A DNA stretch of 64,000 bases from Escherichia phage Gostya9. This document shows, in pieces, positions 7,912-20,908 of this stretch. Position numbers and translations under genes: made by a program. How positions within the stretch are numbered: the first letter of the stretch is position 1; every line of letters starts with the position of its first letter. The notes under the pieces were generated by a model. The model saw nothing but the letters and a program-made list of their open reading frames with translations. It had not been told where the DNA came from and did no database searches. The DNA lies in sequence record NC_047979.1. The stretch is one strand, 5' to 3'.

Positions 7912-8044
7912 AAGTGTAAAAATTCTGAGGAGAAAACTAACCCACAGTAACTACTGTAAAGAGTAGAACTGTCAGTACAGAAGTTTTAACGGGGTATAGA
8001 GGTCCTCGGTACTGTAGCTACAAAATTTATAGAGGAAATAATTA

Positions 8045-9871
8045 ATGACAGAGAATGAATTAATTGAGAATTGCAAAGGTCTGCTCACTCTAACTGCGGA
8101 TAAAGACTTACAACATAATAATGCTAATAAGCCTAGTGAGATGTTCCATACTCAAAGAGACTTATTGGCCGGAGAAATCAACAAGTATTTAGTATCGCAG
8201 GAATTACCCAAACATCTATTAGACGCCCATAATCTAGGTAAGATACACATTCATGATATGGATTACAGAGCGCAGGGGTACACTAACTGTTGCTTAGTAG
8301 ACCTTGGTGGCATGCTGAAGAATGGTACTAAAATTGGTAATGCAAATATTGAAACTCCTAAATCCATAACTACTGCATGTGCAATCACTGCCCAGATTAT
8401 TGCACAAGTATCTGGTGCTCAGTATGGTGGCACCTCTATTGATCGTATCGACGAGGTTCTAGCCCCGTATGTCAGAAAGTCTTACAATAAACATCTGGGT
8501 CGTGGTCTACGTTGGCTCAAGGATGAAAGAAAAGCTGCCGTGTACGCTACTGAGCTTACTGAAAAAGAGTGTTATGATGCATTCCAAGCTCTAGAGTATG
8601 AAACTAATTCATTATTTAACTCTAACGGGCAGACTCCTTTTGTTACGCTTGGCTTTGGGCTAGGACAGGGGTGGGAGGAAAGGATGATTCAGAAAGCCAT
8701 CCTCCAAAATCGTATTAAAGGTTTAGGTGCTGCTGAGTCAACCCCTATCTTCCCTAAACTAGTATTCTCAGTTAAAGAAGGATTAAATAAAAATCCAGGG
8801 GATCCTAACTACGATATAAAACAGCTAGCACTTGAGTGTTCTGCTACTCGTATGTATCCAGACTATTTAAGTTACGAGAAAGTTGTAGCTGTTACTGGTG
8901 ATTTTAAAGCCCCTATGGGTTGTCGTAGTTTTTTATCTGCTATCCCCTCTGGAGAAATTGCAGGGCGTAATAATTTAGGTGTAGTGTCTATCAATCTACC
9001 TATGGTTGCTGCTGAGGCAGATGGAGTTTTTGAAGATTTCTGGGATATTCTAGACAAATATGTGGATGAGGCTTTTGAAGCGCATGACTTCTTCTTAAAC
9101 AGACTGAAGAAAGTTAAGGCTAAACAAGCCCCTATTCTTTATATGCACGGCGGTTTTGGTGTACGTTTAGATGGGGAAGAATATGTATGGCCTATTTTTG
9201 AAGGTAGATCTTCTGTATCTCTTGGGTACATTGGGGTCTATGAGATGTGTCAAATAATGTTTAGTTTACCACAGACTCATAGGGACTGTATTGAGTTTAC
9301 AGAGGAAGTTCTCACTCACCTAAAAAATCGTTGCGAAGTTAAAGCTAACGAGACTAATCTTGGGTTTAGCTTGTATGCAACTCCTAGTGAGTCTCTATGT
9401 AATCGCTTTAATAAACTACTGGAACGTAGATTCCCAGAGTATTCTTGGCTAACAGATAAAGGCTATCTCACTAATAGTCACCATTTGGACGTAAGAGAGA
9501 AGGTAGCTCCGGATACTAAATTTGAGTATGAAGCTCATTTCACCAAAATAGCTAATGGTGGTAATATATCGTTTGTGGAACTACCACAAATGAAAAAGTT
9601 CCATAAAGCTCTTGAATACGTAGTAGATAAGGGATTAGAATGTAGCCATTATATTGGTGTTAATATACCAATTGATGAGTGCTTCAACTGTGGGTATATG
9701 GGTGAATCTGTTGCCTCTGAACGTGGGTTTGTATGTCCGAGTTGTGGATCTGAAGAAATAGAGGTTACACGTAGGGTTTGTGGGTACCTGGGATCCCCGG
9801 GCAGTAGGCCTTTCAATTCTGGGAAACAAAAAGAAGTGCTTGGTAGAGTAAAACACTTAAATCTTAAGTAA
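8045..9871 (+). CDS. nrdD: Anaerobic ribonucleoside-triphosphate reductase
   Basis: C-terminal Zn ribbon (CFNCG...CPSCG) followed by the glycyl-radical motif RVCGYLG. Confidence 0.9.
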   Translation: MTENELIENCKGLLTLTADKDLQHNNANKPSEMFHTQRDLLAGEINKYLVSQELPKHLLDAHNLGKIHIHDMDYRAQGYTNCCLVDLGGMLKNGTKIGNANIETPKSITTACAITAQIIAQVSGAQYGGTSIDRIDEVLAPYVRKSYNKHLGRGLRWLKDERKAAVYATELTEKECYDAFQALEYETNSLFNSNGQTPFVTLGFGLGQGWEERMIQKAILQNRIKGLGAAESTPIFPKLVFSVKEGLNKNPGDPNYDIKQLALECSATRMYPDYLSYEKVVAVTGDFKAPMGCRSFLSAIPSGEIAGRNNLGVVSINLPMVAAEADGVFEDFWDILDKYVDEAFEAHDFFLNRLKKVKAKQAPILYMHGGFGVRLDGEEYVWPIFEGRSSVSLGYIGVYEMCQIMFSLPQTHRDCIEFTEEVLTHLKNRCEVKANETNLGFSLYATPSESLCNRFNKLLERRFPEYSWLTDKGYLTNSHHLDVREKVAPDTKFEYEAHFTKIANGGNISFVELPQMKKFHKALEYVVDKGLECSHYIGVNIPIDECFNCGYMGESVASERGFVCPSCGSEEIEVTRRVCGYLGSPGSRPFNSGKQKEVLGRVKHLNLK

Positions 9872-9878
9872 GCTAATC

Positions 9879-9912
9879 AGCCAGGTTGCTAGTCGACCTG
9901 GCTTTTATTTTA
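9879..9912 (+). terminator. Rho-independent terminator after nrdD
   Basis: agccaggt / acctggct stem followed by tttatttt. Confidence 0.6.
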
Positions 9913-9913
9913 T

Positions 9914-9942
9914 TTGCTTTCAGCTAAAAATATATGTATAAT
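9914..9942 (+). promoter_or_regulatory. Early promoter TTGCTT-17-TATAAT
   Basis: Followed by the conserved ATAGATTTATAAATTTGAGGAGG initial transcribed region and RBS. Confidence 0.55.
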
Positions 9943-9971
9943 AGATTTATAAATTTGAGGAGGTAGGAATT

Positions 9972-10352
9972 ATGGCTTTAAAACCGTATATAGTGGAGTC
10001 TACGTGTGGTGGTTTCCACCTGGGTGTGGATGATATTGCTGAGGCTGTCTTTGCTGCCACAGGTGATTACTCTCATATAGAGGGTGCTGGATACCCCACC
10101 GTTATTGGTGATTGGGTGGAAACAAATCTAGATGTATCGCCTTATAACCCGTATTGCTTGTTTGATGAAGACAGAGATGAAGTAAAATGTAATCTTGAAT
10201 TTGTGTATAATAGAGTGTTAAAAGTATACCAACGTAGTCCCGAGGGATACGAAGATATTACTTGGAGTATTAAACAGTATCTTAAAGATGTATACTCTAG
10301 TTTTTCTGACGAAGGCCTAGAAACAGTTGCAGTGGAGTTTAATAATGACTAA
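9972..10352 (+). CDS. Hypothetical early protein (126 aa)
   Basis: ATG with strong gaggagg RBS immediately downstream of the promoter. Confidence 0.6.
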   Translation: MALKPYIVESTCGGFHLGVDDIAEAVFAATGDYSHIEGAGYPTVIGDWVETNLDVSPYNPYCLFDEDRDEVKCNLEFVYNRVLKVYQRSPEGYEDITWSIKQYLKDVYSSFSDEGLETVAVEFNND

Positions 10353-10578
10353 GAATGTGAAACACCTTAAATATCGTTTAATCTATAACGGACGTATGGA
10401 AACTGAAGAGCTAGCTCAATTAGCTATTAACTCTAATGAGGTTATGGTGCGTGCGCTAGCAATTGAAAAGTTGCGGGCTTCTTATGAAAGTCGTATTATG
10501 GAACTAGAGGAGAAACTTTATGGACTTCTCGAAGCCGAAGCTAGAAGCAATTCAGAGGACAGGCCTACTAAGCAATAG
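10345..10578 (+). CDS. Hypothetical early protein (about 77 aa)
   Basis: ATG at 10345 with a ggag RBS, overlapping the upstream stop; the track start at 10327 lacks an RBS. Confidence 0.4.
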   Translation: MTKNVKHLKYRLIYNGRMETEELAQLAINSNEVMVRALAIEKLRASYESRIMELEEKLYGLLEAEARSNSEDRPTKQ

Positions 10579-10646
10579 AAGGTATGTATATAGGGAGTAA
10601 TTTTACCTCAAAACATTATTGAAGGATTTAAGAGAGGGATTGTACA

Positions 10647-11474
10647 GTGCGTAGATTAATTATTATTAGCGGTGCAGGTTTGAGTGTTGAAAGTGGTGTA
10701 CGAGCCTTCCGTACTGATACTGCTAGTGGTAAAGCATTGTGGGATGATTATGATCTAGAAGAAGTATGTAATATTCATGCCTTTCGTGGTAATTTTTATC
10801 ATAAAACTCATATGTTTTACAACAAGCGTCGTGAAGAGTTAGAAACTGTTGAACCCAATCTTGCACACTTGCGTATTGGTGAATGGCATAAGAAATACCA
10901 GGGTCAAGTAGTAAACTTGACTACCAACGTTGATGACCTTATTGAGCGTGCTGGCGTTCCACATAGTGACATTCTGCACATTCATGGGTATTTAAAAGAG
11001 GTTGTTGTAGCTGATAGCTACAATAGTAGCAATAAACGAGTTATTGATGTTGGGTATAGCTCTATTGACCCAGAGGATTATAAATGGGTTAAACCTAATG
11101 TAGTCTTCTTTGGTGAGCATGCTCCAGCGTACGCAGAAATGTACAATATTTTTGATGGTATTACCAGTCAAGATATGATTATTGTGGTTGGTTGCTCTAA
11201 CCAAGTAATTAACTTCTACTGGGAATTATTCCCTGTTCTTAACCGTACTGCTGCGAAACTTATGGTGGTTAACTACTACGATATTACCCTCGCGGCAGAA
11301 CCAGGCTATCAAGGTATGACTCGTAGTGAGATGTACCAACTGGAAGAACGGGGTATTCCTTACTGGGGTAAAGGTGCGGTAGATGCTTTCAGTGACCCTG
11401 ATTTTATTGCTCGTGTGGAAGCCCATTTAGAGGGTAGACCTTATATGCCGGGGAACAAATATGTCCATAGTTAA
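10647..11474 (+). CDS. Sirtuin (SIR2)-family NAD-dependent protein, no zinc ribbon
   Basis: GAGLSVESGVRAFR (sirtuin GAGIS..SGIP.FR), TTNVDDLIERAGVP..ILHIHG (catalytic His block) and VVFFGE; no CxxC...CxxC zinc module. GTG start with gagaggg RBS. Confidence 0.75.
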   Translation: MRRLIIISGAGLSVESGVRAFRTDTASGKALWDDYDLEEVCNIHAFRGNFYHKTHMFYNKRREELETVEPNLAHLRIGEWHKKYQGQVVNLTTNVDDLIERAGVPHSDILHIHGYLKEVVVADSYNSSNKRVIDVGYSSIDPEDYKWVKPNVVFFGEHAPAYAEMYNIFDGITSQDMIIVVGCSNQVINFYWELFPVLNRTAAKLMVVNYYDITLAAEPGYQGMTRSEMYQLEERGIPYWGKGAVDAFSDPDFIARVEAHLEGRPYMPGNKYVHS

Positions 11475-11643
11475 ATCTGTATGTACACATCCCGATGATA
11501 TATTTGTATGGGCGGATGGTAGTTGGTGTTATCGATGTGAGCTATGGGAAATGGACTATAAATCCGATGACTATGGTGTCATATATGTTGATACGGTTGA
11601 GTATGATACGTTCTTAGAAAGGAACAAAAATGGAAATAAGTAA
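11461..11643 (+). CDS. Hypothetical small Cys-rich protein (60 aa)
   Basis: ORF overlapping the upstream stop; Cys/His/Trp-rich (C..H.....W..C..C). Confidence 0.35.
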   Translation: MSIVKSVCTHPDDIFVWADGSWCYRCELWEMDYKSDDYGVIYVDTVEYDTFLERNKNGNK

Positions 11644-12016
11644 TACTCCAATTATTTTTCTAGACATTGATGGGGTGCTTAATTCGAGCATCTCCCATCA
11701 CCATGCACCTGATGATGAAAAGGTTTTCTTTGGAAGTGACTGGGTTTTTAAACCGCTTCTCAAGGTTTTTCAGGACTTTATTCGTCCTTCTCCAATAATG
11801 ATTGTTGGGGTATCCTCATGGTTCTCTGTCAGGAATGAGATGGAGAACGTTCAGATTATGACCGGATTAGGTCTTATCGATCGTTTTCTTGGTATAACGG
11901 GTTTTACTGGTGGTGGGCTATCTAGAGGTAATTCTGTTCTTCACTTCGTTGAAAAGCATAAGCTCAAACATTGGTGCTATGATGTATCAGTATCCAACGG
12001 TTATAGTCAACGGTAG
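11630..12016 (+). CDS. HAD-superfamily hydrolase-like protein (possible nucleotidase), possibly frameshifted
   Basis: N-terminal IIFLDIDGVLNS matches HAD motif I (DxDGV/T); aaaggaac RBS. Only 128 aa, with a second ORF (11910-12116) continuing in another frame. Confidence 0.4.
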   Translation: MEISNTPIIFLDIDGVLNSSISHHHAPDDEKVFFGSDWVFKPLLKVFQDFIRPSPIMIVGVSSWFSVRNEMENVQIMTGLGLIDRFLGITGFTGGGLSRGNSVLHFVEKHKLKHWCYDVSVSNGYSQR

Positions 12017-12118
12017 AACTGGAATAAATCTTCAAGATTTAAGAGCTGTTAGCTATATGCTAGAATTTAGTCCAGATCTTGAAATGTGTAAAGCTCTACA
12101 ACAATTTAAGGTGTAAAT

Positions 12119-12547
12119 ATGTTCAATAATGTATTCTCTAAAGAAGCTAACCCAATATTGGTTAATTTTTGGCGTACTCTTCCAGCCAACCTGTACAATG
12201 AGGCTATTAATGCTCTGAAAATATGGTGTGAGAATAATGAAATCTCCTTTGCTTTTAAGGATGAGATTGAAGAAGCTCCCTGTATTGGTTTAATTGTGCA
12301 GGTAGAGGATGGCTTTGAAGAGATTGTCGGCTGGAAAGAGTTGGATGAAATGGGATTGGTTTTTGCATTAAACTATAAGCTGTTTATGCCTAATAAACAC
12401 CGTATTGTTGTTAATTATAAAACCAGTGAATCTCCTGGTTTTCAAGTTAATGAACATTACGGTTGGTCTTACTCACCGGAAGAAGTAAATGATGGTATCC
12501 AAAGACTTCGTCGTTTTGGTTATCAAATTCCGGGTTTAACTGCCTAA
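12119..12547 (+). CDS. Hypothetical protein, paralog A of a tandem pair
   Basis: Shares with the next ORF PC(I/V)G...(W)xEL..MGL(V/I)xAL(N/D)..LF.P and a C-terminal G(Y/I)(Q/Y)(I/V)PGL block. Confidence 0.55.
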   Translation: MFNNVFSKEANPILVNFWRTLPANLYNEAINALKIWCENNEISFAFKDEIEEAPCIGLIVQVEDGFEEIVGWKELDEMGLVFALNYKLFMPNKHRIVVNYKTSESPGFQVNEHYGWSYSPEEVNDGIQRLRRFGYQIPGLTA

Positions 12548-12556
12548 GGGGGCACA

Positions 12557-12949
12557 ATGGAACAAGTATATTGGCGTCAGATTGATCCTAGTTTGGTGAA
12601 GAGTGCGGAGAAGCTGCTACAACGTTGGTTGGGGGTAAGACAAGCCTCCTTCACTTTTCCGGAGCAGCAAATAGACGATCCCTGTGTTGGTGTTTTCCTA
12701 TCAGGCTACGCTAGGGAAGTGGAATTGGATTGGAATGAATTGTCTGCTATGGGTTTAATTGTTGCACTAGATTTCTCTTTGTTCCATCCAAGTGGTTTGG
12801 CAATATGTCGTGTGCCTGATGACGGTTGTTCGCCCCATCTTTTACAGGTGGAAGATAATATTTGGGAGTACCCTCCAGATATTCTCAAAGAAGCTAAAGA
12901 ACAATTAAATCGTGTTGGGATTTATGTTCCAGGCCTGAATGATGAATGA
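12557..12949 (+). CDS. Hypothetical protein, paralog B of a tandem pair
   Basis: See paralog A; gggggc RBS before the ATG. Confidence 0.55.
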   Translation: MEQVYWRQIDPSLVKSAEKLLQRWLGVRQASFTFPEQQIDDPCVGVFLSGYAREVELDWNELSAMGLIVALDFSLFHPSGLAICRVPDDGCSPHLLQVEDNIWEYPPDILKEAKEQLNRVGIYVPGLNDE

Positions 12950-12972
12950 TTTTTATTAGCTGAACTCTGATT

Positions 12973-13000
12973 ACCGAGTCATTTTGGCTCGGTTTTCTCT
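12973..13000 (+). terminator. Rho-independent terminator
   Basis: accgag / ctcggt stem followed by tttctct. Confidence 0.45.
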
Positions 13001-18954: not shown

Positions 18955-19926
18955 ATGACTAATGTAAAAGAATTTATTAAACGCTGTCAAGAAGCATATT
19001 ATCAGGGCATGTCTTTAATCTCTGATGAGGAGTATGATCGCCTGGTAAAACGCTTCCCGTTAGAGGAAGAGATCGGGCCTAAGGGTGATATTCCACACCT
19101 ATATCGTATGTATTCTTTACAGAAAGTTTATTATAATCGTGGAGATAAACCCCCATTTGACCCGTTAGGTCAAGTAGAAACTGATAAGTTAGATGGTTGT
19201 GCGATTTCCCTGCTATATATTAACGGTGAATTTGTTCAAGCACTAACTCGTGGTAATGGTATTCTGGGAAATGATGTCACAAGCAACGTAAGATTGCTGA
19301 ACATCCCTAAAAAGATTTCCCAAAAAGTACCTACTCAAATCACTGGTGAAGTTCTAATTACAAAAGAAGTAGAAAATAAACGTAACTTTGCCTCTGGTGC
19401 TATTAACCTCAAAGATAGTGATGATTTCATGCAACGTATCGGGGAAGGTGGTTTAATCTTCGTTGCATACGGTATCCAGTGTTCTGCTGAATCTGTAGGT
19501 ATTACAGAAGCGTATTTAAAAGATATGCTTTGGCTAGAGAATGAGAACTTCTTAACAGTTGTTAATGTGCGTTCCTTCTTTAAATGGATTCCGACGGACG
19601 GTAAAGTTGTTCGTATTAATGACAATAACAAATTCTTCCGTGAAGGTTGGACTAATAAATTTCCTCGTGGGGCATTCGCTATTAAAGAGGATGAAGAAGG
19701 CGAGATTACAACTCTTACTAAAGTTGAATGGCAGGTAGGGGCTTCTGGTAAAGTAACTCCAGTCGGTTATTTTGAACCAGTAATTATTGATGATGCTACA
19801 ATTGTTAAAGCGACTCTTAATAATGTTGATTATATTAACTCTCTCGATCTAGAGATCGGTTGCCAGATTCGAGTGATTCGTGCTGGTGGTGTAATCCCGT
19901 GCATAGTAGAGCGAGTTTATGATTAA
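18955..19926 (+). CDS. NAD-dependent DNA ligase, adenylation-domain subunit (LigA-like N-terminal half)
   Basis: Adenylation-site KxDG motif (ETDKLDGCAISL); ends after the OB-like region, with the remaining ligase domains in the next ORF. Confidence 0.75.
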   Translation: MTNVKEFIKRCQEAYYQGMSLISDEEYDRLVKRFPLEEEIGPKGDIPHLYRMYSLQKVYYNRGDKPPFDPLGQVETDKLDGCAISLLYINGEFVQALTRGNGILGNDVTSNVRLLNIPKKISQKVPTQITGEVLITKEVENKRNFASGAINLKDSDDFMQRIGEGGLIFVAYGIQCSAESVGITEAYLKDMLWLENENFLTVVNVRSFFKWIPTDGKVVRINDNNKFFREGWTNKFPRGAFAIKEDEEGEITTLTKVEWQVGASGKVTPVGYFEPVIIDDATIVKATLNNVDYINSLDLEIGCQIRVIRAGGVIPCIVERVYD

Positions 19927-20125: not shown

Positions 20126-20908
20126 TTGATGAAAATCGAAATTCCAACACAATGTCCCTCTTGTGGTTCTAAGCTAGATCTTGTCAACGGACAATTATTC
20201 TGTCGTAATAAGTCCAACTGTCCAGCGCAATCAAGTAAGTTAATTGAGAACTTCTGTACAAAAATGAAGTTAAAGGGCTTTGGCCCGAAAACTATTGAGA
20301 AGCTGGAGCTGACGAAGATTTCAGAACTATTTTACCTAACCGAAGAAGATTTGGTTAGAGCCGTGGGTAGCAAGGTTGCCGCTAAGTTAATTAGCGAATT
20401 AAATACTAAAGTTCGCGGAGACATTGACTTTGGTTCAGTTCTCGGTTCTTTAGGAATCCCTCTAATTGGAGAGGTTGCAGCAAAGAAATTATCCCAAAAT
20501 TGCACTAGCTTCCACGATGTGAAGGCTGACGGCAGGGCTGGAGAAAACTATAAAGCCTGGCTAAATTCCCCACAAGGCAAGGATGTTATCGAATTACCGT
20601 GGAAATTCACAACCGGTATTAAAGGTGCTAAAGCTGAGGTCAGCATTACTGATGGTCTAGTAGCCCAACCAAATGGAATCACGGTGTGTATTACCGGATC
20701 TTTGCAAGATTTTGCAAATAGAACGGATGCAACAAACTATCTAGAAGGTCTAGGGTATACTGTTAAAAAATCAGTTACCAAAGACGTTAAATACCTCATC
20801 TGTGAGGATGAATCTAAGCGTTCTTCCTCATCTTATAAGAAAGCCGAAACGAATGGGATAGAAATCCTGTCGATTAAAGAACTATTGGAGAAAAATAATA
20901 ATGTCTAA
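20126..20908 (+). CDS. NAD-dependent DNA ligase, Zn-finger/HhH/BRCT subunit (LigA-like C-terminal half)
   Basis: Zn finger CPSCGSKLDLVNGQLFCRNKSNC, HhH-like segments, C-terminal BRCT-like region; own aaggaag RBS. Confidence 0.7.
   Translation: MMKIEIPTQCPSCGSKLDLVNGQLFCRNKSNCPAQSSKLIENFCTKMKLKGFGPKTIEKLELTKISELFYLTEEDLVRAVGSKVAAKLISELNTKVRGDIDFGSVLGSLGIPLIGEVAAKKLSQNCTSFHDVKADGRAGENYKAWLNSPQGKDVIELPWKFTTGIKGAKAEVSITDGLVAQPNGITVCITGSLQDFANRTDATNYLEGLGYTVKKSVTKDVKYLICEDESKRSSSSYKKAETNGIEILSIKELLEKNNNV

Follow-up and report, generated by a model that had tools for sequence, protein, structure and literature searches.

Sirtuins are among the best-studied of the NAD-using enzymes, and the copy carried by Escherichia phage T5 is also found in hundreds of phages that are candidates for therapy. 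The T5 protein, T5.102 (YP_006930.1), has been labelled “Sir2 (NAD-dependent deacetylase)” since about 2005. In 2016, the Sir2/CobB proteins of the KVP40-like Vibrio phages phiSt2 and phiGrn1 were reported to be devoid of zinc ligands, were modelled on CobB, and were linked to phage NAD salvage; that study named the T5 protein as a homolog and proposed, from modelling and transcript data only, that host acetyl-CoA synthetase is deacetylated (PMC5107563). More recently, a clade of phage sirtuins was predicted to act in RNA repair, with one of its gene-neighborhood types (type 3) typified by the T5-like phage SP15 (Iyer, Burroughs, Anantharaman, and Aravind 2022, PMC9503650, section 3.7.3). Our literature search turned up no member of this clade that has been tested biochemically or genetically.

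In this report, we describe the counterpart of T5.102 in the T5-like Escherichia phage Gostya9 (NC_047979.1). The window, that is, the whole stretch of DNA that was analyzed, is 64,000 nucleotides long, and all features below lie on its + strand. The gene occupies positions 10647–11474, starts with GTG, and encodes 275 amino acids. Every close homolog opens with MRRLI, which supports the assigned start. The product matches the Pfam SIR2 profile (PF02146) over residues 9–187 and profile positions 1–178 of 180 (E=6.8e-26; 91.8 bits against a gathering score of 24), and a profile search aligns it with PHROG 2162, “Sir2” (E=2e-119). It has an AF2 model with a pLDDT of 89.9, to which the top 50 Foldseek matches are sirtuins only, E. 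coli CobB being the first (TM 0.85 by target length; E=1.8e-17). The gene is a re-discovery, having been annotated already as Sir2 in T5-like phages. The locus is that of T5.102, which likewise lies between nrdD and the origin-binding gene and has the same motifs and the same neighbors; the T5 region is 94% identical to that of Gostya9 in DNA, and the representative of the T5-type 90%-identity cluster (P0001) has 93% protein identity. The two proteins differ in their last ~8 residues because T5.103, a tandem paralog of T5.104, has been deleted in Gostya9.

The NAD-binding and catalytic-His blocks on which the original prediction was founded are all present as quoted. The NAD-binding loop, GAGLSVESGVRAFR (residues 9–22; 10671–10712), aligns to GAGISAESGIRTFR of CobB and has a complete GAGxSxxSGxxxFR pattern, in which G9, A10, G11, S13, S16, G17, F21, and R22 are invariant in the family. 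The segment TTNVDDLIERAGVP...HIHG comprises residues 92–114. It begins with TTNVDD (residues 92–97; 10920–10937), where alignments to CobB and the family indicate that Asn94 and Asp96 are retained and that Thr93 stands at the place normally held by Gln in the TQN(I/V)D motif; near its end is the catalytic His113 of HIHG (10983–10985), which aligns to CobB His147 (residue 122 of the crystallized chain). The same alignments locate the sirtuin substrate-side loop, VVFFGE, at residues 152–157 (11100–11117) and the sequence GCS, replacing the usual GTS, at residues 182–184 (11190–11198). The catalytic His and the NAD-binding residues are thus intact on alignment: His113 and Asn94 occur in 151/151 family representatives, and Asp96 in 146/151.

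The acyl-lysine pocket of CobB and SIRT5 also appears to be kept, since the alignments preserve Tyr58, Arg61, Val95, Val132, and Val152. Tyr58 and Arg61, found in 145 and 116 of the 151 representatives, respectively, constitute the Tyr-x-x-Arg pair of class III sirtuins; they lie in FYNKRR (residues 57–62; 10815–10832) and align to CobB Y92 and R95. In SIRT5 and CobB, this pair binds the acidic end of succinyl- or malonyl-lysine. Cys41 (10767–10769), which never varies within the close family and occurs in 125/151 representatives, aligns to CobB Ala76 by our own indexing of the alignment, and presumably corresponds to Ala86 of the SIRT5 acyl pocket. Further, the pocket positions aligned to CobB A76, I131, V162, and V187 are conserved.

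By sequence and predicted fold, the protein derives from the class III sirtuins, which include E. coli CobB and SIRT5. CobB (PDB 1S5P, 6RXJ; profile E=6e-29) is the best match in both respects alongside human SIRT5, and profile searches of the PDB rank CobB ahead of Sir2Af2 and Sir2Af1, followed by SIRT5, Sir2Tm, and SIRT2. The phage protein shares with CobB and SIRT5 the NAD loop, including a GIR-type arginine (Arg19), the Tyr-x-x-Arg pair, the catalytic His, and the FGE loop. Its identity to CobB, however, is about 26%. It has Thr for Gln in TQN, Cys for Thr in GTS, and Cys for Ala at A76; CobB bears C...CxCC in its zinc segment, whereas the phage protein has no zinc cysteines; and, unlike CobB, it has an additional helical stretch at the C-terminus. 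We considered and rejected the status of a CobB ortholog: the protein scores 103.2 bits against a cut-off of 243 and 93.6 bits against one of 320, the cut-offs for CobB orthology at the equivalog/subfamily level being 243–320 (NCBIfam NF040867, NF001753, and related models). The original prediction had named clustering with housekeeping CobB deacetylases that carry a degenerate zinc site as an outcome that would contradict it. A derivation from CobB is indeed what we find, but not orthology, and the zinc site is absent rather than degenerate.

The kinship just described makes it possible, if somewhat doubtful, that the protein is a conventional NAD-dependent lysine deacylase, most likely with a SIRT5/CobB-like preference for acidic acyl groups (succinyl, malonyl) or for acetyl. 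Early in infection, such an enzyme would remodel the acylation of proteins of the host or the phage; its zinc ribbon would simply have been swapped for a hydrophobic mini-sheet. Its nearest relatives in sequence and fold (CobB, Sir2Af1/2, and SIRT5) are deacylases; the catalytic His, Asn, and Asp, the cofactor loop, the Tyr-x-x-Arg pair, and the pocket positions are conserved; and the small domain is confidently modelled as a three-stranded sheet that contains no zinc. Yet three near-universal features (Cys4, TQN, and GTS) are altered together, mutation of the zinc cysteines inactivates classical sirtuins, and the scores fall far under the CobB ortholog cut-offs. Nor does deacylation explain the repeated linkage, detailed below, of these genes to RNA ligase, cREC, kinase, phosphoesterase, RlaP, and Thg1. 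A gene for NAMPT adjoins the sirtuin gene of one relative (locus L063), an arrangement that fits the recycling of nicotinamide by any sirtuin. The modelling study of 2016 argued along the same lines for the zinc-less KVP40-type protein (PMC5107563).

The original prediction was also right that the CxxC...CxxC zinc module is missing. The only cysteines of the protein are C41 and C183, too few for a Cys4 zinc site; the Cys4 ribbon of the classical deacylases (classes I–IV and U) is accordingly not found. The segment that replaces it, located by the CobB alignment and the model at residues 115–149 (10989–11093), is free of cysteine and bears the clade motif D-V-G-Y. In the model, the small domain consists of three beta strands (residues 114–122, 131–134, and 147–152) with a pLDDT of about 89–98. 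A cysteine pattern in the zinc-ribbon segment was seen in 0/36 aligned family members. Zinc loss co-varies with the changes from TQN to TTN and from GTS to GCS in the NAD-site motifs, and the joint alteration hints at a remodelled site. Zinc-bearing relatives have gene contexts similar to those of the zinc-less members; therefore, the functional switch probably does not lie in the zinc loss as such. Mutation of the zinc cysteines inactivates classical sirtuins, and so the activity of a zinc-less sirtuin is not to be assumed.

These considerations, together with the dependence of classical sirtuins on zinc ligands for stability, could be taken to mean that the protein is an inactive or purely structural remnant. 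Knock-down of T5.102 by CRISPRi-ART in a laboratory host had no effect on fitness (“Not Fit”; PMC11879866 supplement), as a remnant would lead one to expect. This negative is a weak one, since the same screen also scored the T5 origin-binding gene as “Not Fit” (PMC11879866), and it would fit a conditional role resembling that of T4 pseT/rnlA; the texts on PhageMaP (Bas63) and HIDEN-SEQ (Bas54) make no mention of the sirtuin. The residues for catalysis and NAD binding all stay constant in hundreds of diverged sequences, the fold is predicted with confidence, and the gene is kept in > 400 phage records by DNA search. In comparison with its T5 counterpart, it is under purifying selection (dN/dS 0.12). 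We thus regard a remnant as very improbable. The gene is best explained as an accessory early gene of the phage.

The defense SIR2 NADases (ThsA, DSR1/2, SIR2-HerA, and SPARSA) and SirTM have a SIR2 Rossmann-type NAD-binding domain in common with the phage sirtuin, and some of them likewise have no canonical zinc ribbon. This resemblance had suggested kinship with the NAD-consuming, defense-type enzymes, a proposal that did not survive comparison. No defense SIR2 model of PADLOC matches the protein, for which PADLOC returned only a restriction enzyme model at chance level (E=0.019); its sequence and fold neighbors are all deacylase-type sirtuins, the best being CobB, Sir2Af1/2, and SIRT5, and the class III Tyr-x-x-Arg pair is kept. 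Further, unlike the defense NADases, the phage sirtuin is a stand-alone protein of 275 residues that has neither sensor nor partner domains. The related idea that the phage uses it to manipulate host NAD pools has fared little better. The window encodes a split NAD-dependent DNA ligase, which makes NAD depletion by the sirtuin unlikely; and, as related phages invest genes in rebuilding NAD, its bulk destruction would be self-harming. A small-molecule enzyme in a wider sense, be it an NAD+ glycohydrolase or one that makes or destroys ADP-ribose-derived signals against NAD-based host immunity, is also an unlikely identity for this protein. Deacylase-type sirtuins, from which the family comes, couple the cleavage of NAD to an acceptor. 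On the other hand, zinc-less, divergent SIR2 domains can be NADases, and both the V5-like phages and L063 have NAD-salvage genes close to the sirtuin cluster. In a jumbo-phage relative (L062), the neighbors of the sirtuin include a DUF4326 gene and a nucleoside deoxyribosyltransferase-like gene, both of which have been tied to NAD/ADP-ribose networks (PMC7824862).

Another possibility, which we rate slightly lower still, is that the protein is a mono-ADP-ribosyltransferase with a protein of the host or the phage as its target, either in the manner of SirTM or as a side activity of a sirtuin, comparable to T4 Alt and Mod. Phages often ADP-ribosylate host proteins early, and the sirtuin is encoded in the early region; protein ADP-ribosylation is within the reach of sirtuin scaffolds, as reviewed in PMC9503650. 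Such a role would leave the RNA-repair neighbors unaccounted for. A SirTM-type kinship is not borne out either: a macrodomain partner of the SirTM type is absent from the operon proteins and from the sampled neighborhoods of orthologs, and no SirTM-type structure is among the 60 best PDB matches listed.

It is the gene neighbors of the orthologs that point to RNA repair, rather than to the draining of NAD or to CobB-type housekeeping deacetylation. In the sampled T5-like loci, the sirtuin gene is followed by one for a “HAD domain in Swiss Army Knife RNA repair proteins”. Orthologs that are 49–63% identical lie on the same strand as, and directly 3' of, genes for RNA_lig_T4_1 (Rnl1), cREC_REC, and an AAA_33 kinase, with Metallophos nearby; the arrangement Rnl1-cREC-kinase-sirtuin is seen in Raoultella phage Ro1 and in four more sampled contigs. 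The linkage survives rearrangement, for two loci (L003 and L039) have inverted kinase and Metallophos genes, and the cREC gene is relocated in another (L033). Altogether, the repair-gene cluster is present in about 14/36 non-T5-like viral loci. Among the zinc-bearing distant relatives (36–38% identity), one (L064) has Rnl1 two genes upstream, and in the jumbo-phage relative the sirtuin gene is 1.3–3.1 kb from RlaP (an “RNA repair pathway” nucleotidyltransferase) and Thg1. Both neighborhood types set out in section 3.7.3 of PMC9503650 (HAD_SAK; Rnl1/cREC/kinase) were thus reproduced independently here, and the SP15 region is 93.7% identical to the sirtuin region of Gostya9. Set beside that section, which offers a computational prediction, the zinc loss, the co-variation with TTN and GCS, and the similar contexts of zinc-bearing relatives are points of the present analysis. 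We therefore favor, with a probability of about 0.4, a role in the repair of RNA ends, in which this sirtuin would carry out an accessory, NAD-dependent step that is possibly Tpt1-like.

Tpt1/KptA consumes NAD+ and releases nicotinamide in two steps by way of an ADP-ribosylated intermediate, and it acts beside an RNA ligase, a kinase, and a cyclic phosphodiesterase. The reactions of sirtuins and of Tpt1 both begin with the attack of an oxygen nucleophile on C1'' of NAD+, followed by that of the ribose 2''-OH. In the favored explanation, the protein belongs to a phage-specific clade that branched off the class III sirtuins and, within it, to a subgroup that dropped the zinc cysteines and kept the small beta-sheet domain. 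Judging from its residues, the enzyme would be catalytically competent and NAD+-consuming, and would carry out one step of a counter-defense pathway in which the phage mends RNA, probably tRNA, that host nucleases have cleaved. In this explanation, it is an inference both that the substrate is RNA and that the reaction resembles that of Tpt1. Following the proposal in section 3.7.3 of PMC9503650, NAD+ would donate its ADP-ribose to an anionic oxygen at the damaged end of the RNA, e.g., a 2'-phosphate, and the catalytic His would help the ribose 2''-OH to displace the phosphate, as in Tpt1/KptA. The products would be nicotinamide and a cyclic ADP-ribose phosphate, and partner phosphoesterases would process the phosphates: HAD_SAK_2 in the T5-like phages and, in the V5-like phages, Metallophos, cREC, and kinase enzymes with the Rnl1 ligase. 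Tpt1/KptA is proposed here as a functional analog only and not as a homolog; its fold belongs to the ADP-ribosyltransferase superfamily and is unrelated to that of sirtuins (PMC9503650). Pfam and fold searches of the phage protein for the Tpt1/KptA (PTS_2-RNA) fold returned sirtuins only.

Several facts count against RNA repair. The preserved acyl-lysine pocket offers no positive sign of a switch to RNA in the sequence, and the low pI of the family (5.55 for the Gostya9 protein; median of 5.2 among 120 members) would be atypical of an enzyme that binds RNA. The 64-kb window has no detectable homolog of Rnl1, cREC, or the kinase; Rnl1 matches just 14 Salmonella phage records, compared to 246 Salmonella records with the sirtuin locus, and so few T5-like records can have it. 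The HAD gene is frameshifted in Gostya9 while the sirtuin gene is intact, and HAD is undetectable in some related sirtuin-bearing loci (L053, L057, and L058). Two sampled lineages have a sirtuin gene with no informative neighbors. Viewed from the side of cREC, a sirtuin gene is within 4.5 kb at only 7/68 loci, many of the distant cREC hits perhaps not being true orthologs; at the other cREC loci, ten recurrent neighbor families were scanned, none of which is a KptA in place of the sirtuin (PRPP synthetase-like, MazG/PRA-PH-like, thymidylate synthase, helicase, Metallophos, glucosaminidase, and four that have no Pfam match). Finally, the synteny among V5-like phages may in part reflect shared ancestry instead of function.

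To our knowledge, no sirtuin has a demonstrated activity on RNA. A bolder form of the repair proposal, which we hold only tentatively and think about as doubtful as conventional lysine deacylation, is that the phage CobB-like clade, the zinc-less T5-type form among it, comprises no protein deacylases at all, but the first sirtuins to act on nucleic acid, e.g., an NAD-dependent RNA 2'-phosphotransferase, or a kindred enzyme for processing RNA ends, that completes tRNA repair after host anticodon nucleases have acted. Under this reading, zinc loss, TTN, and GCS would mark a further specialization of the NAD site within the clade. As a speculative variant, the clade might strip acyl groups that host acetyltransferase toxins have put on aminoacyl-tRNA. 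If the prediction of RNA repair is true, sirtuin chemistry extends from proteins to RNA, and phages possess a new tool against tRNA-cutting immunity, which would help to explain the NAD-rebuilding genes in such phages. If the protein proves to be a plain deacylase, it is a compact, zinc-independent sirtuin and thus informative on the purpose of the zinc module.

In Gostya9, positions 9972–12949 hold a single gene unit bounded by terminator-like hairpins at 9879–9903, after nrdD, and at 12973–12993; at the equivalent places, T5 annotates a terminator and promoter and a terminator, respectively. The flanking genes encode NrdD upstream and an origin-binding/helicase-like protein downstream. The original prediction had placed the sirtuin in a stretch of small, uncharacterized ORFs between nrdD and the replication ATPase; the location is correct, but not all of these ORFs are uncharacterized, since they include HAD_SAK_2 and two DUF7415 genes. 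Ahead of the sirtuin gene are the homologs of T5.100 (9972–10352; 126 residues; phrog_11748), which is variable among T5-like phages, and of T5.101 (10345–10578; 77 residues; phrog_5236), identified by the T5 annotation and PHROG. Behind it, comparison with T5 identifies the homolog of T5.104 (11461–11643; 60 residues; phrog_5116) and the HAD_SAK_2 phosphatase gene, the ortholog of T5.105 (11630–12016), which is frameshifted only in Gostya9 and encodes 128 residues versus 168. The cause is a 20-bp deletion at a TGGTG repeat (junction at 11972–11976), which shifts the frame and loses the residues WCVLDDAG; it is shared by 0/207 phage records that span the junction (of 294 matching records). The C-terminal 50 residues persist as an out-of-frame remnant (11964–12116) that is 94% identical to residues 119–168 of T5.105.

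The unit ends with two DUF7415 genes identified by profile search: the T5.106 ortholog (12119–12547; 142 residues), which has two DUF7415 repeats, and its paralog at 30% identity, the T5.107 ortholog (12557–12949; 130 residues). A single-unit DUF7415 gene adjoins nrdD/nrdG in T4-like Klebsiella phages that have no sirtuin gene at that spot. The link between DUF7415 and the sirtuin is thus probably incidental, and we dropped these neighbors as a functional clue. We also entertained an allele replacement at the sirtuin gene in one T5-like sublineage (L041–L044), in which the protein is 52% identical. The flanks there are diverged or mosaic too (77–81% DNA identity), however, and the difference is ordinary mosaic divergence; in this comparison, the sirtuin evolves faster than the HAD gene.

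The sirtuin ORF (10647-11474, + strand) opens with a GTG codon and encodes 275 aa; this start is fixed by the homologs, as MRRLI forms the N-terminus of every close one. Pfam SIR2 spans the full catalytic core of the product (E=6.8e-26, 91.8 bits vs. a cut-off of 24), and PHROG 2162, "Sir2", matches it with E=2e-119. The sirtuin motif blocks lie at aa 9-22, 92-114 and 152-157. C41 and C183 are the protein's sole cysteines, and its counterpart of the CobB zinc-cysteine segment (VRC...CHCC), which is VVVADSYNSSNKRVIDVGYSSIDPEDYKWVK in an alignment to E. coli CobB, is Cys-free. The original prediction of a sirtuin ORF at this position, with these three blocks and without the zinc module, is thus borne out.

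The window derives from a T5-like phage. Its 3.1-kb stretch around the sirtuin (9900-13000) shares 94% identity with Escherichia phage T5, and over 400 phage records resemble this stretch. The sirtuin is the ortholog of T5.102, variously labelled "Sir2 (NAD-dependent deacetylase)", "putative Sir2-like protein" and "cobB putative transferase" in T5 records. In the T5 annotation, T5.100-T5.107 form a single promoter-to-terminator unit, and terminator-like hairpins at 9879-9903 and 12973-12993 occupy places in the window equivalent to the boundaries of that unit. The sirtuin has a dN/dS of 0.12 relative to T5. Taken together, these facts indicate that the gene is real and expressed within an early-region operon, and that it is already known as an annotation. 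In T5-like phages, T5.100 and T5.101 precede the sirtuin, which is followed by one or two small phrog_5116 paralogs, then by a HAD_SAK_2 phosphatase and a pair of DUF7415 proteins.

With a profile built from 36 family members, the best PDB match was E. coli CobB (E=6e-29), followed by the archaeal Sir2Af2 and Sir2Af1, SIRT5, Sir2Tm and SIRT2. The AlphaFold model of the sirtuin is confident (pLDDT 89.9), and Foldseek also placed CobB first (E=1.8e-17, TM 0.85 by target length), then SIRT5 and Sir2Af1. The Tyr-x-x-Arg pair of class III sirtuins is present as Y58 and R61, aligned to Y92 and R95 of CobB, and is conserved across the family. CobB is therefore the closest protein of solved structure by sequence profile and fold and shares the class III pair, but of the two only CobB has the zinc cysteines. 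As judged from sequence, the phage protein keeps the full catalytic machinery of a sirtuin on a class III scaffold from which the zinc ligands are absent, and it is predicted to be active. Three strands (114-122, 131-134 and 147-152) are confidently modelled in place of the zinc ribbon; the small domain is thus retained without metal ligands. Models of defence-system SIR2 proteins did not match the sirtuin. The proposal of a zinc-less phage sirtuin consequently stands, while its suggested kinship to NADase or defence types gives way to the CobB/SIRT5-type neighbors found by profile and fold. Clear clustering with housekeeping CobB, named beforehand as one of the findings that would overturn the proposal, is seen only in part: the protein is of CobB-type descent but is not a CobB ortholog, as its scores of 93-103 bits fall far short of the curated cut-offs (243-320).

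Searches of 1.8 billion representative proteins yielded relatives in 41 clusters at E<=1e-30 and 787 at E<=1e-10, and residues were scored in 151 near relatives. The catalytic His and Asn are present in 151/151 and the Asp in 146/151; Tyr58 is found in 145 and Arg61 in 116 of the 151. Position 93 (Thr93 in the window, 10923-10925) is Gln in 83 relatives and Thr in 57. A small domain with at least three Cys tracks Gln93 (72 vs. 10) and one with at most one Cys tracks Thr93 (47 vs. 10; Fisher p=2e-17), with ten intermediates each way. Further, the GTS motif occurs in 82/83 Gln93 members, and GCS, GSS or GAS in 50/57 Thr93 members. Three features thus change together in the clade: the four zinc Cys disappear (10989-11093 in the window), the Gln of TQNxD becomes Thr, and the Thr of GTS becomes Cys, Ser or Ala (Cys183, 11193-11195). 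In solved sirtuin structures, the NAD site is lined by the TQN and GTS motifs. The co-variation suggests that zinc loss was a late event within a wider clade, together with two NAD-site motif changes; we found no mention of it in the consulted passages on the clade. Zinc-bearing and zinc-less members alike have a D/N-(I/V)-G-Y motif in their small domains. Cys41 (10767-10769) aligns with CobB Ala76; it never varies in the close family and recurs in 125/151 relatives, zinc-bearing or zinc-less; we take this position to be that of SIRT5 Ala86, in the acyl pocket.

The sirtuin is under purifying selection, and its linkage to RNA-end-processing genes is conserved in several lineages. Sirtuins 49-63% identical to it, from phages of 90-150 kb, lie on the same strand directly 3' of RNA_lig_T4_1 (an Rnl1-type RNA ligase), cREC_REC and an AAA_33 kinase, with a Metallophos phosphoesterase upstream and a DNA ligase downstream. 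This linkage outlasts rearrangement among the sampled loci: L003 and L039 carry the kinase and Metallophos genes in inverted orientation, cREC has been relocated in L033, and L065 has acquired small ORFs by insertion. Among more distant viral relatives, at 36-42% identity, variants of this context occur. In a 607-kb contig, Rnl1 lies two genes upstream; in a 278-kb jumbo phage, the sirtuin is flanked by DUF4326 and a nucleoside deoxyribosyltransferase-like gene, with RlaP and Thg1 at 1.3-3.1 kb; in a 120-kb contig, NAMPT is directly upstream. The sirtuins of the 607-kb contig and the jumbo phage keep the four Cys and TQN, and the RNA-linked context is therefore not confined to zinc-less members. 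Sirtuin neighbors were uninformative in two sampled lineages (ECO340P2-like). One locus (L066 1-5786, CATQRX010000037.1) has a second, inverted RNA ligase-cREC-kinase-SIR2 copy facing the first, its ligase truncated; this arrangement is either a genuine inverted duplication or a palindrome created during assembly. Iyer, Burroughs, Anantharaman and Aravind (2022, PMC9503650) already describe the clade's neighborhoods, the HAD-linked one being typified by the T5-like phage SP15. Earlier literature on phage sirtuins also includes Skliros et al. The gene and its likely role are thus already in the literature, and novelty is low.

The favoured reading, with a probability of about 0.4, is that the sirtuin consumes NAD+ at one step of phage RNA (tRNA) repair, possibly in the manner of Tpt1. 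An oxygen nucleophile would attack C1'' of NAD+ with loss of nicotinamide, after which the ribose 2''-OH would attack the transferred group. The neighboring cREC and phosphoesterases might serve to open cyclic phosphates, or to process the cyclic ADP-ribose phosphate that results. Sirtuin and Tpt1 reactions both proceed by these two steps, and the conserved sirtuin His promotes the 2''-OH attack; by this analogy, the proposed chemistry appears reasonable. Conventional lysine deacylation, though somewhat less likely, is a serious rival, because the CobB/SIRT5 acyl pocket is seemingly preserved in alignments, the protein is acidic (pI 5.55; family median 5.2), and the RNA-repair partners are inconstant. 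No Rnl1, cREC or kinase homolog is detectable within the 64-kb window, and Rnl1 can occur in few T5-likes (14 Salmonella phage records match it vs. 246 with the sirtuin locus). HAD is not detectable at some related loci that retain the sirtuin, cREC mostly occurs without a nearby sirtuin, and no KptA was found in the sirtuin's place among the ten recurrent neighbor families scanned at the other cREC loci. The biochemical choice between a deacylase and the first nucleic-acid-directed sirtuin is of moderate interest.

Neither a biochemical nor a genetic test of a clade member turned up in our literature search. The sole experimental datum is a CRISPRi-ART screen of T5 (PMC11879866 supplement), in which T5.100-T5.106, including T5.102, scored "Not Fit" and the DUF7415 gene T5.107 "Fit". 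Knock-down of T5.102 therefore had no fitness effect in the one available T5 screen, whose sensitivity is limited, as the origin-binding gene T5.108 was likewise "Not Fit".

Two observations make it unlikely that the sirtuin depletes NAD. The phage's own replication is NAD+-dependent, since its DNA ligase is a split NAD-dependent enzyme (18955-19926 and 20126-20908), and genes for rebuilding NAD are found close to the sirtuin cluster in related phages. The ligase has its adenylation and OB domains in one ORF and HhH and BRCT in the next, as in T5 ligA/ligB. In V5-like phages, NAD-salvage genes (NAMPT/NAPRTase, PRPP synthetase-like) lie no more than a few kb from the cluster in two loci (L002 1-2209; L065 1-416), and in one distant phage (L063 8057-9490) such a gene is directly upstream of the sirtuin. 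Bas63 is presumably a V5-like phage. PhageMaP, which describes it only as non-model, identifies its g79 and g80 as NAD+ biosynthesis enzymes that counter SIR2-HerA defence.

The HAD_SAK_2 gene, named in Pfam for the "HAD domain in Swiss Army Knife RNA repair proteins", is full-length in ~450 phage records. In the window, the T5.105 ortholog (11630-12116 together with its out-of-frame remnant) is frameshifted and encodes 128 aa vs. 168 normally. A 20-bp deletion between TGGTG repeats (junction ~11972-11976) shifts the frame after residue ~115. The product thereby loses WCVLDDAG as well as its last 50 aa, whose coding sequence is still present in another frame at 11964-12116. None of 207 junction-spanning phage records (294 matching) shares this deletion. 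Either this isolate has dropped a predicted partner yet keeps a constrained sirtuin, or the lesion is an assembly error; if it is real, the sirtuin has no strict need for the HAD enzyme. The HAD gene is labelled "Sir2 (NAD-dependent deacetylase)" in RefSeq and other records (L001 4875-5381, T5.105, and many T5-likes). This is a propagated misannotation that stems from PHROG 18062, which bears the Sir2 name but in fact corresponds to the HAD protein's C-terminal half (T5.105 aa 77-168, E=3.5e-58).

Around the sirtuin end (11442-11474) and the phrog_5116 gene (11461-11643), the window lacks T5.103, one of two tandem phrog_5116 paralogs, through a ~175-bp deletion that rewrites the sirtuin C-terminus (YMPGNKYVHS vs. 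YVSGSKK in T5); T5.103 is missing from many T5-likes as well. Upstream, nrdD (8014-9959) is mosaic among T5-likes, with 96.6% identity to sampled locus L043 and only 64-68% to L036, L041, L053 and L057, and relatedness runs the other way in the genes that follow it. Its ORF is 608 aa in the window vs. 574 aa annotated in T5.
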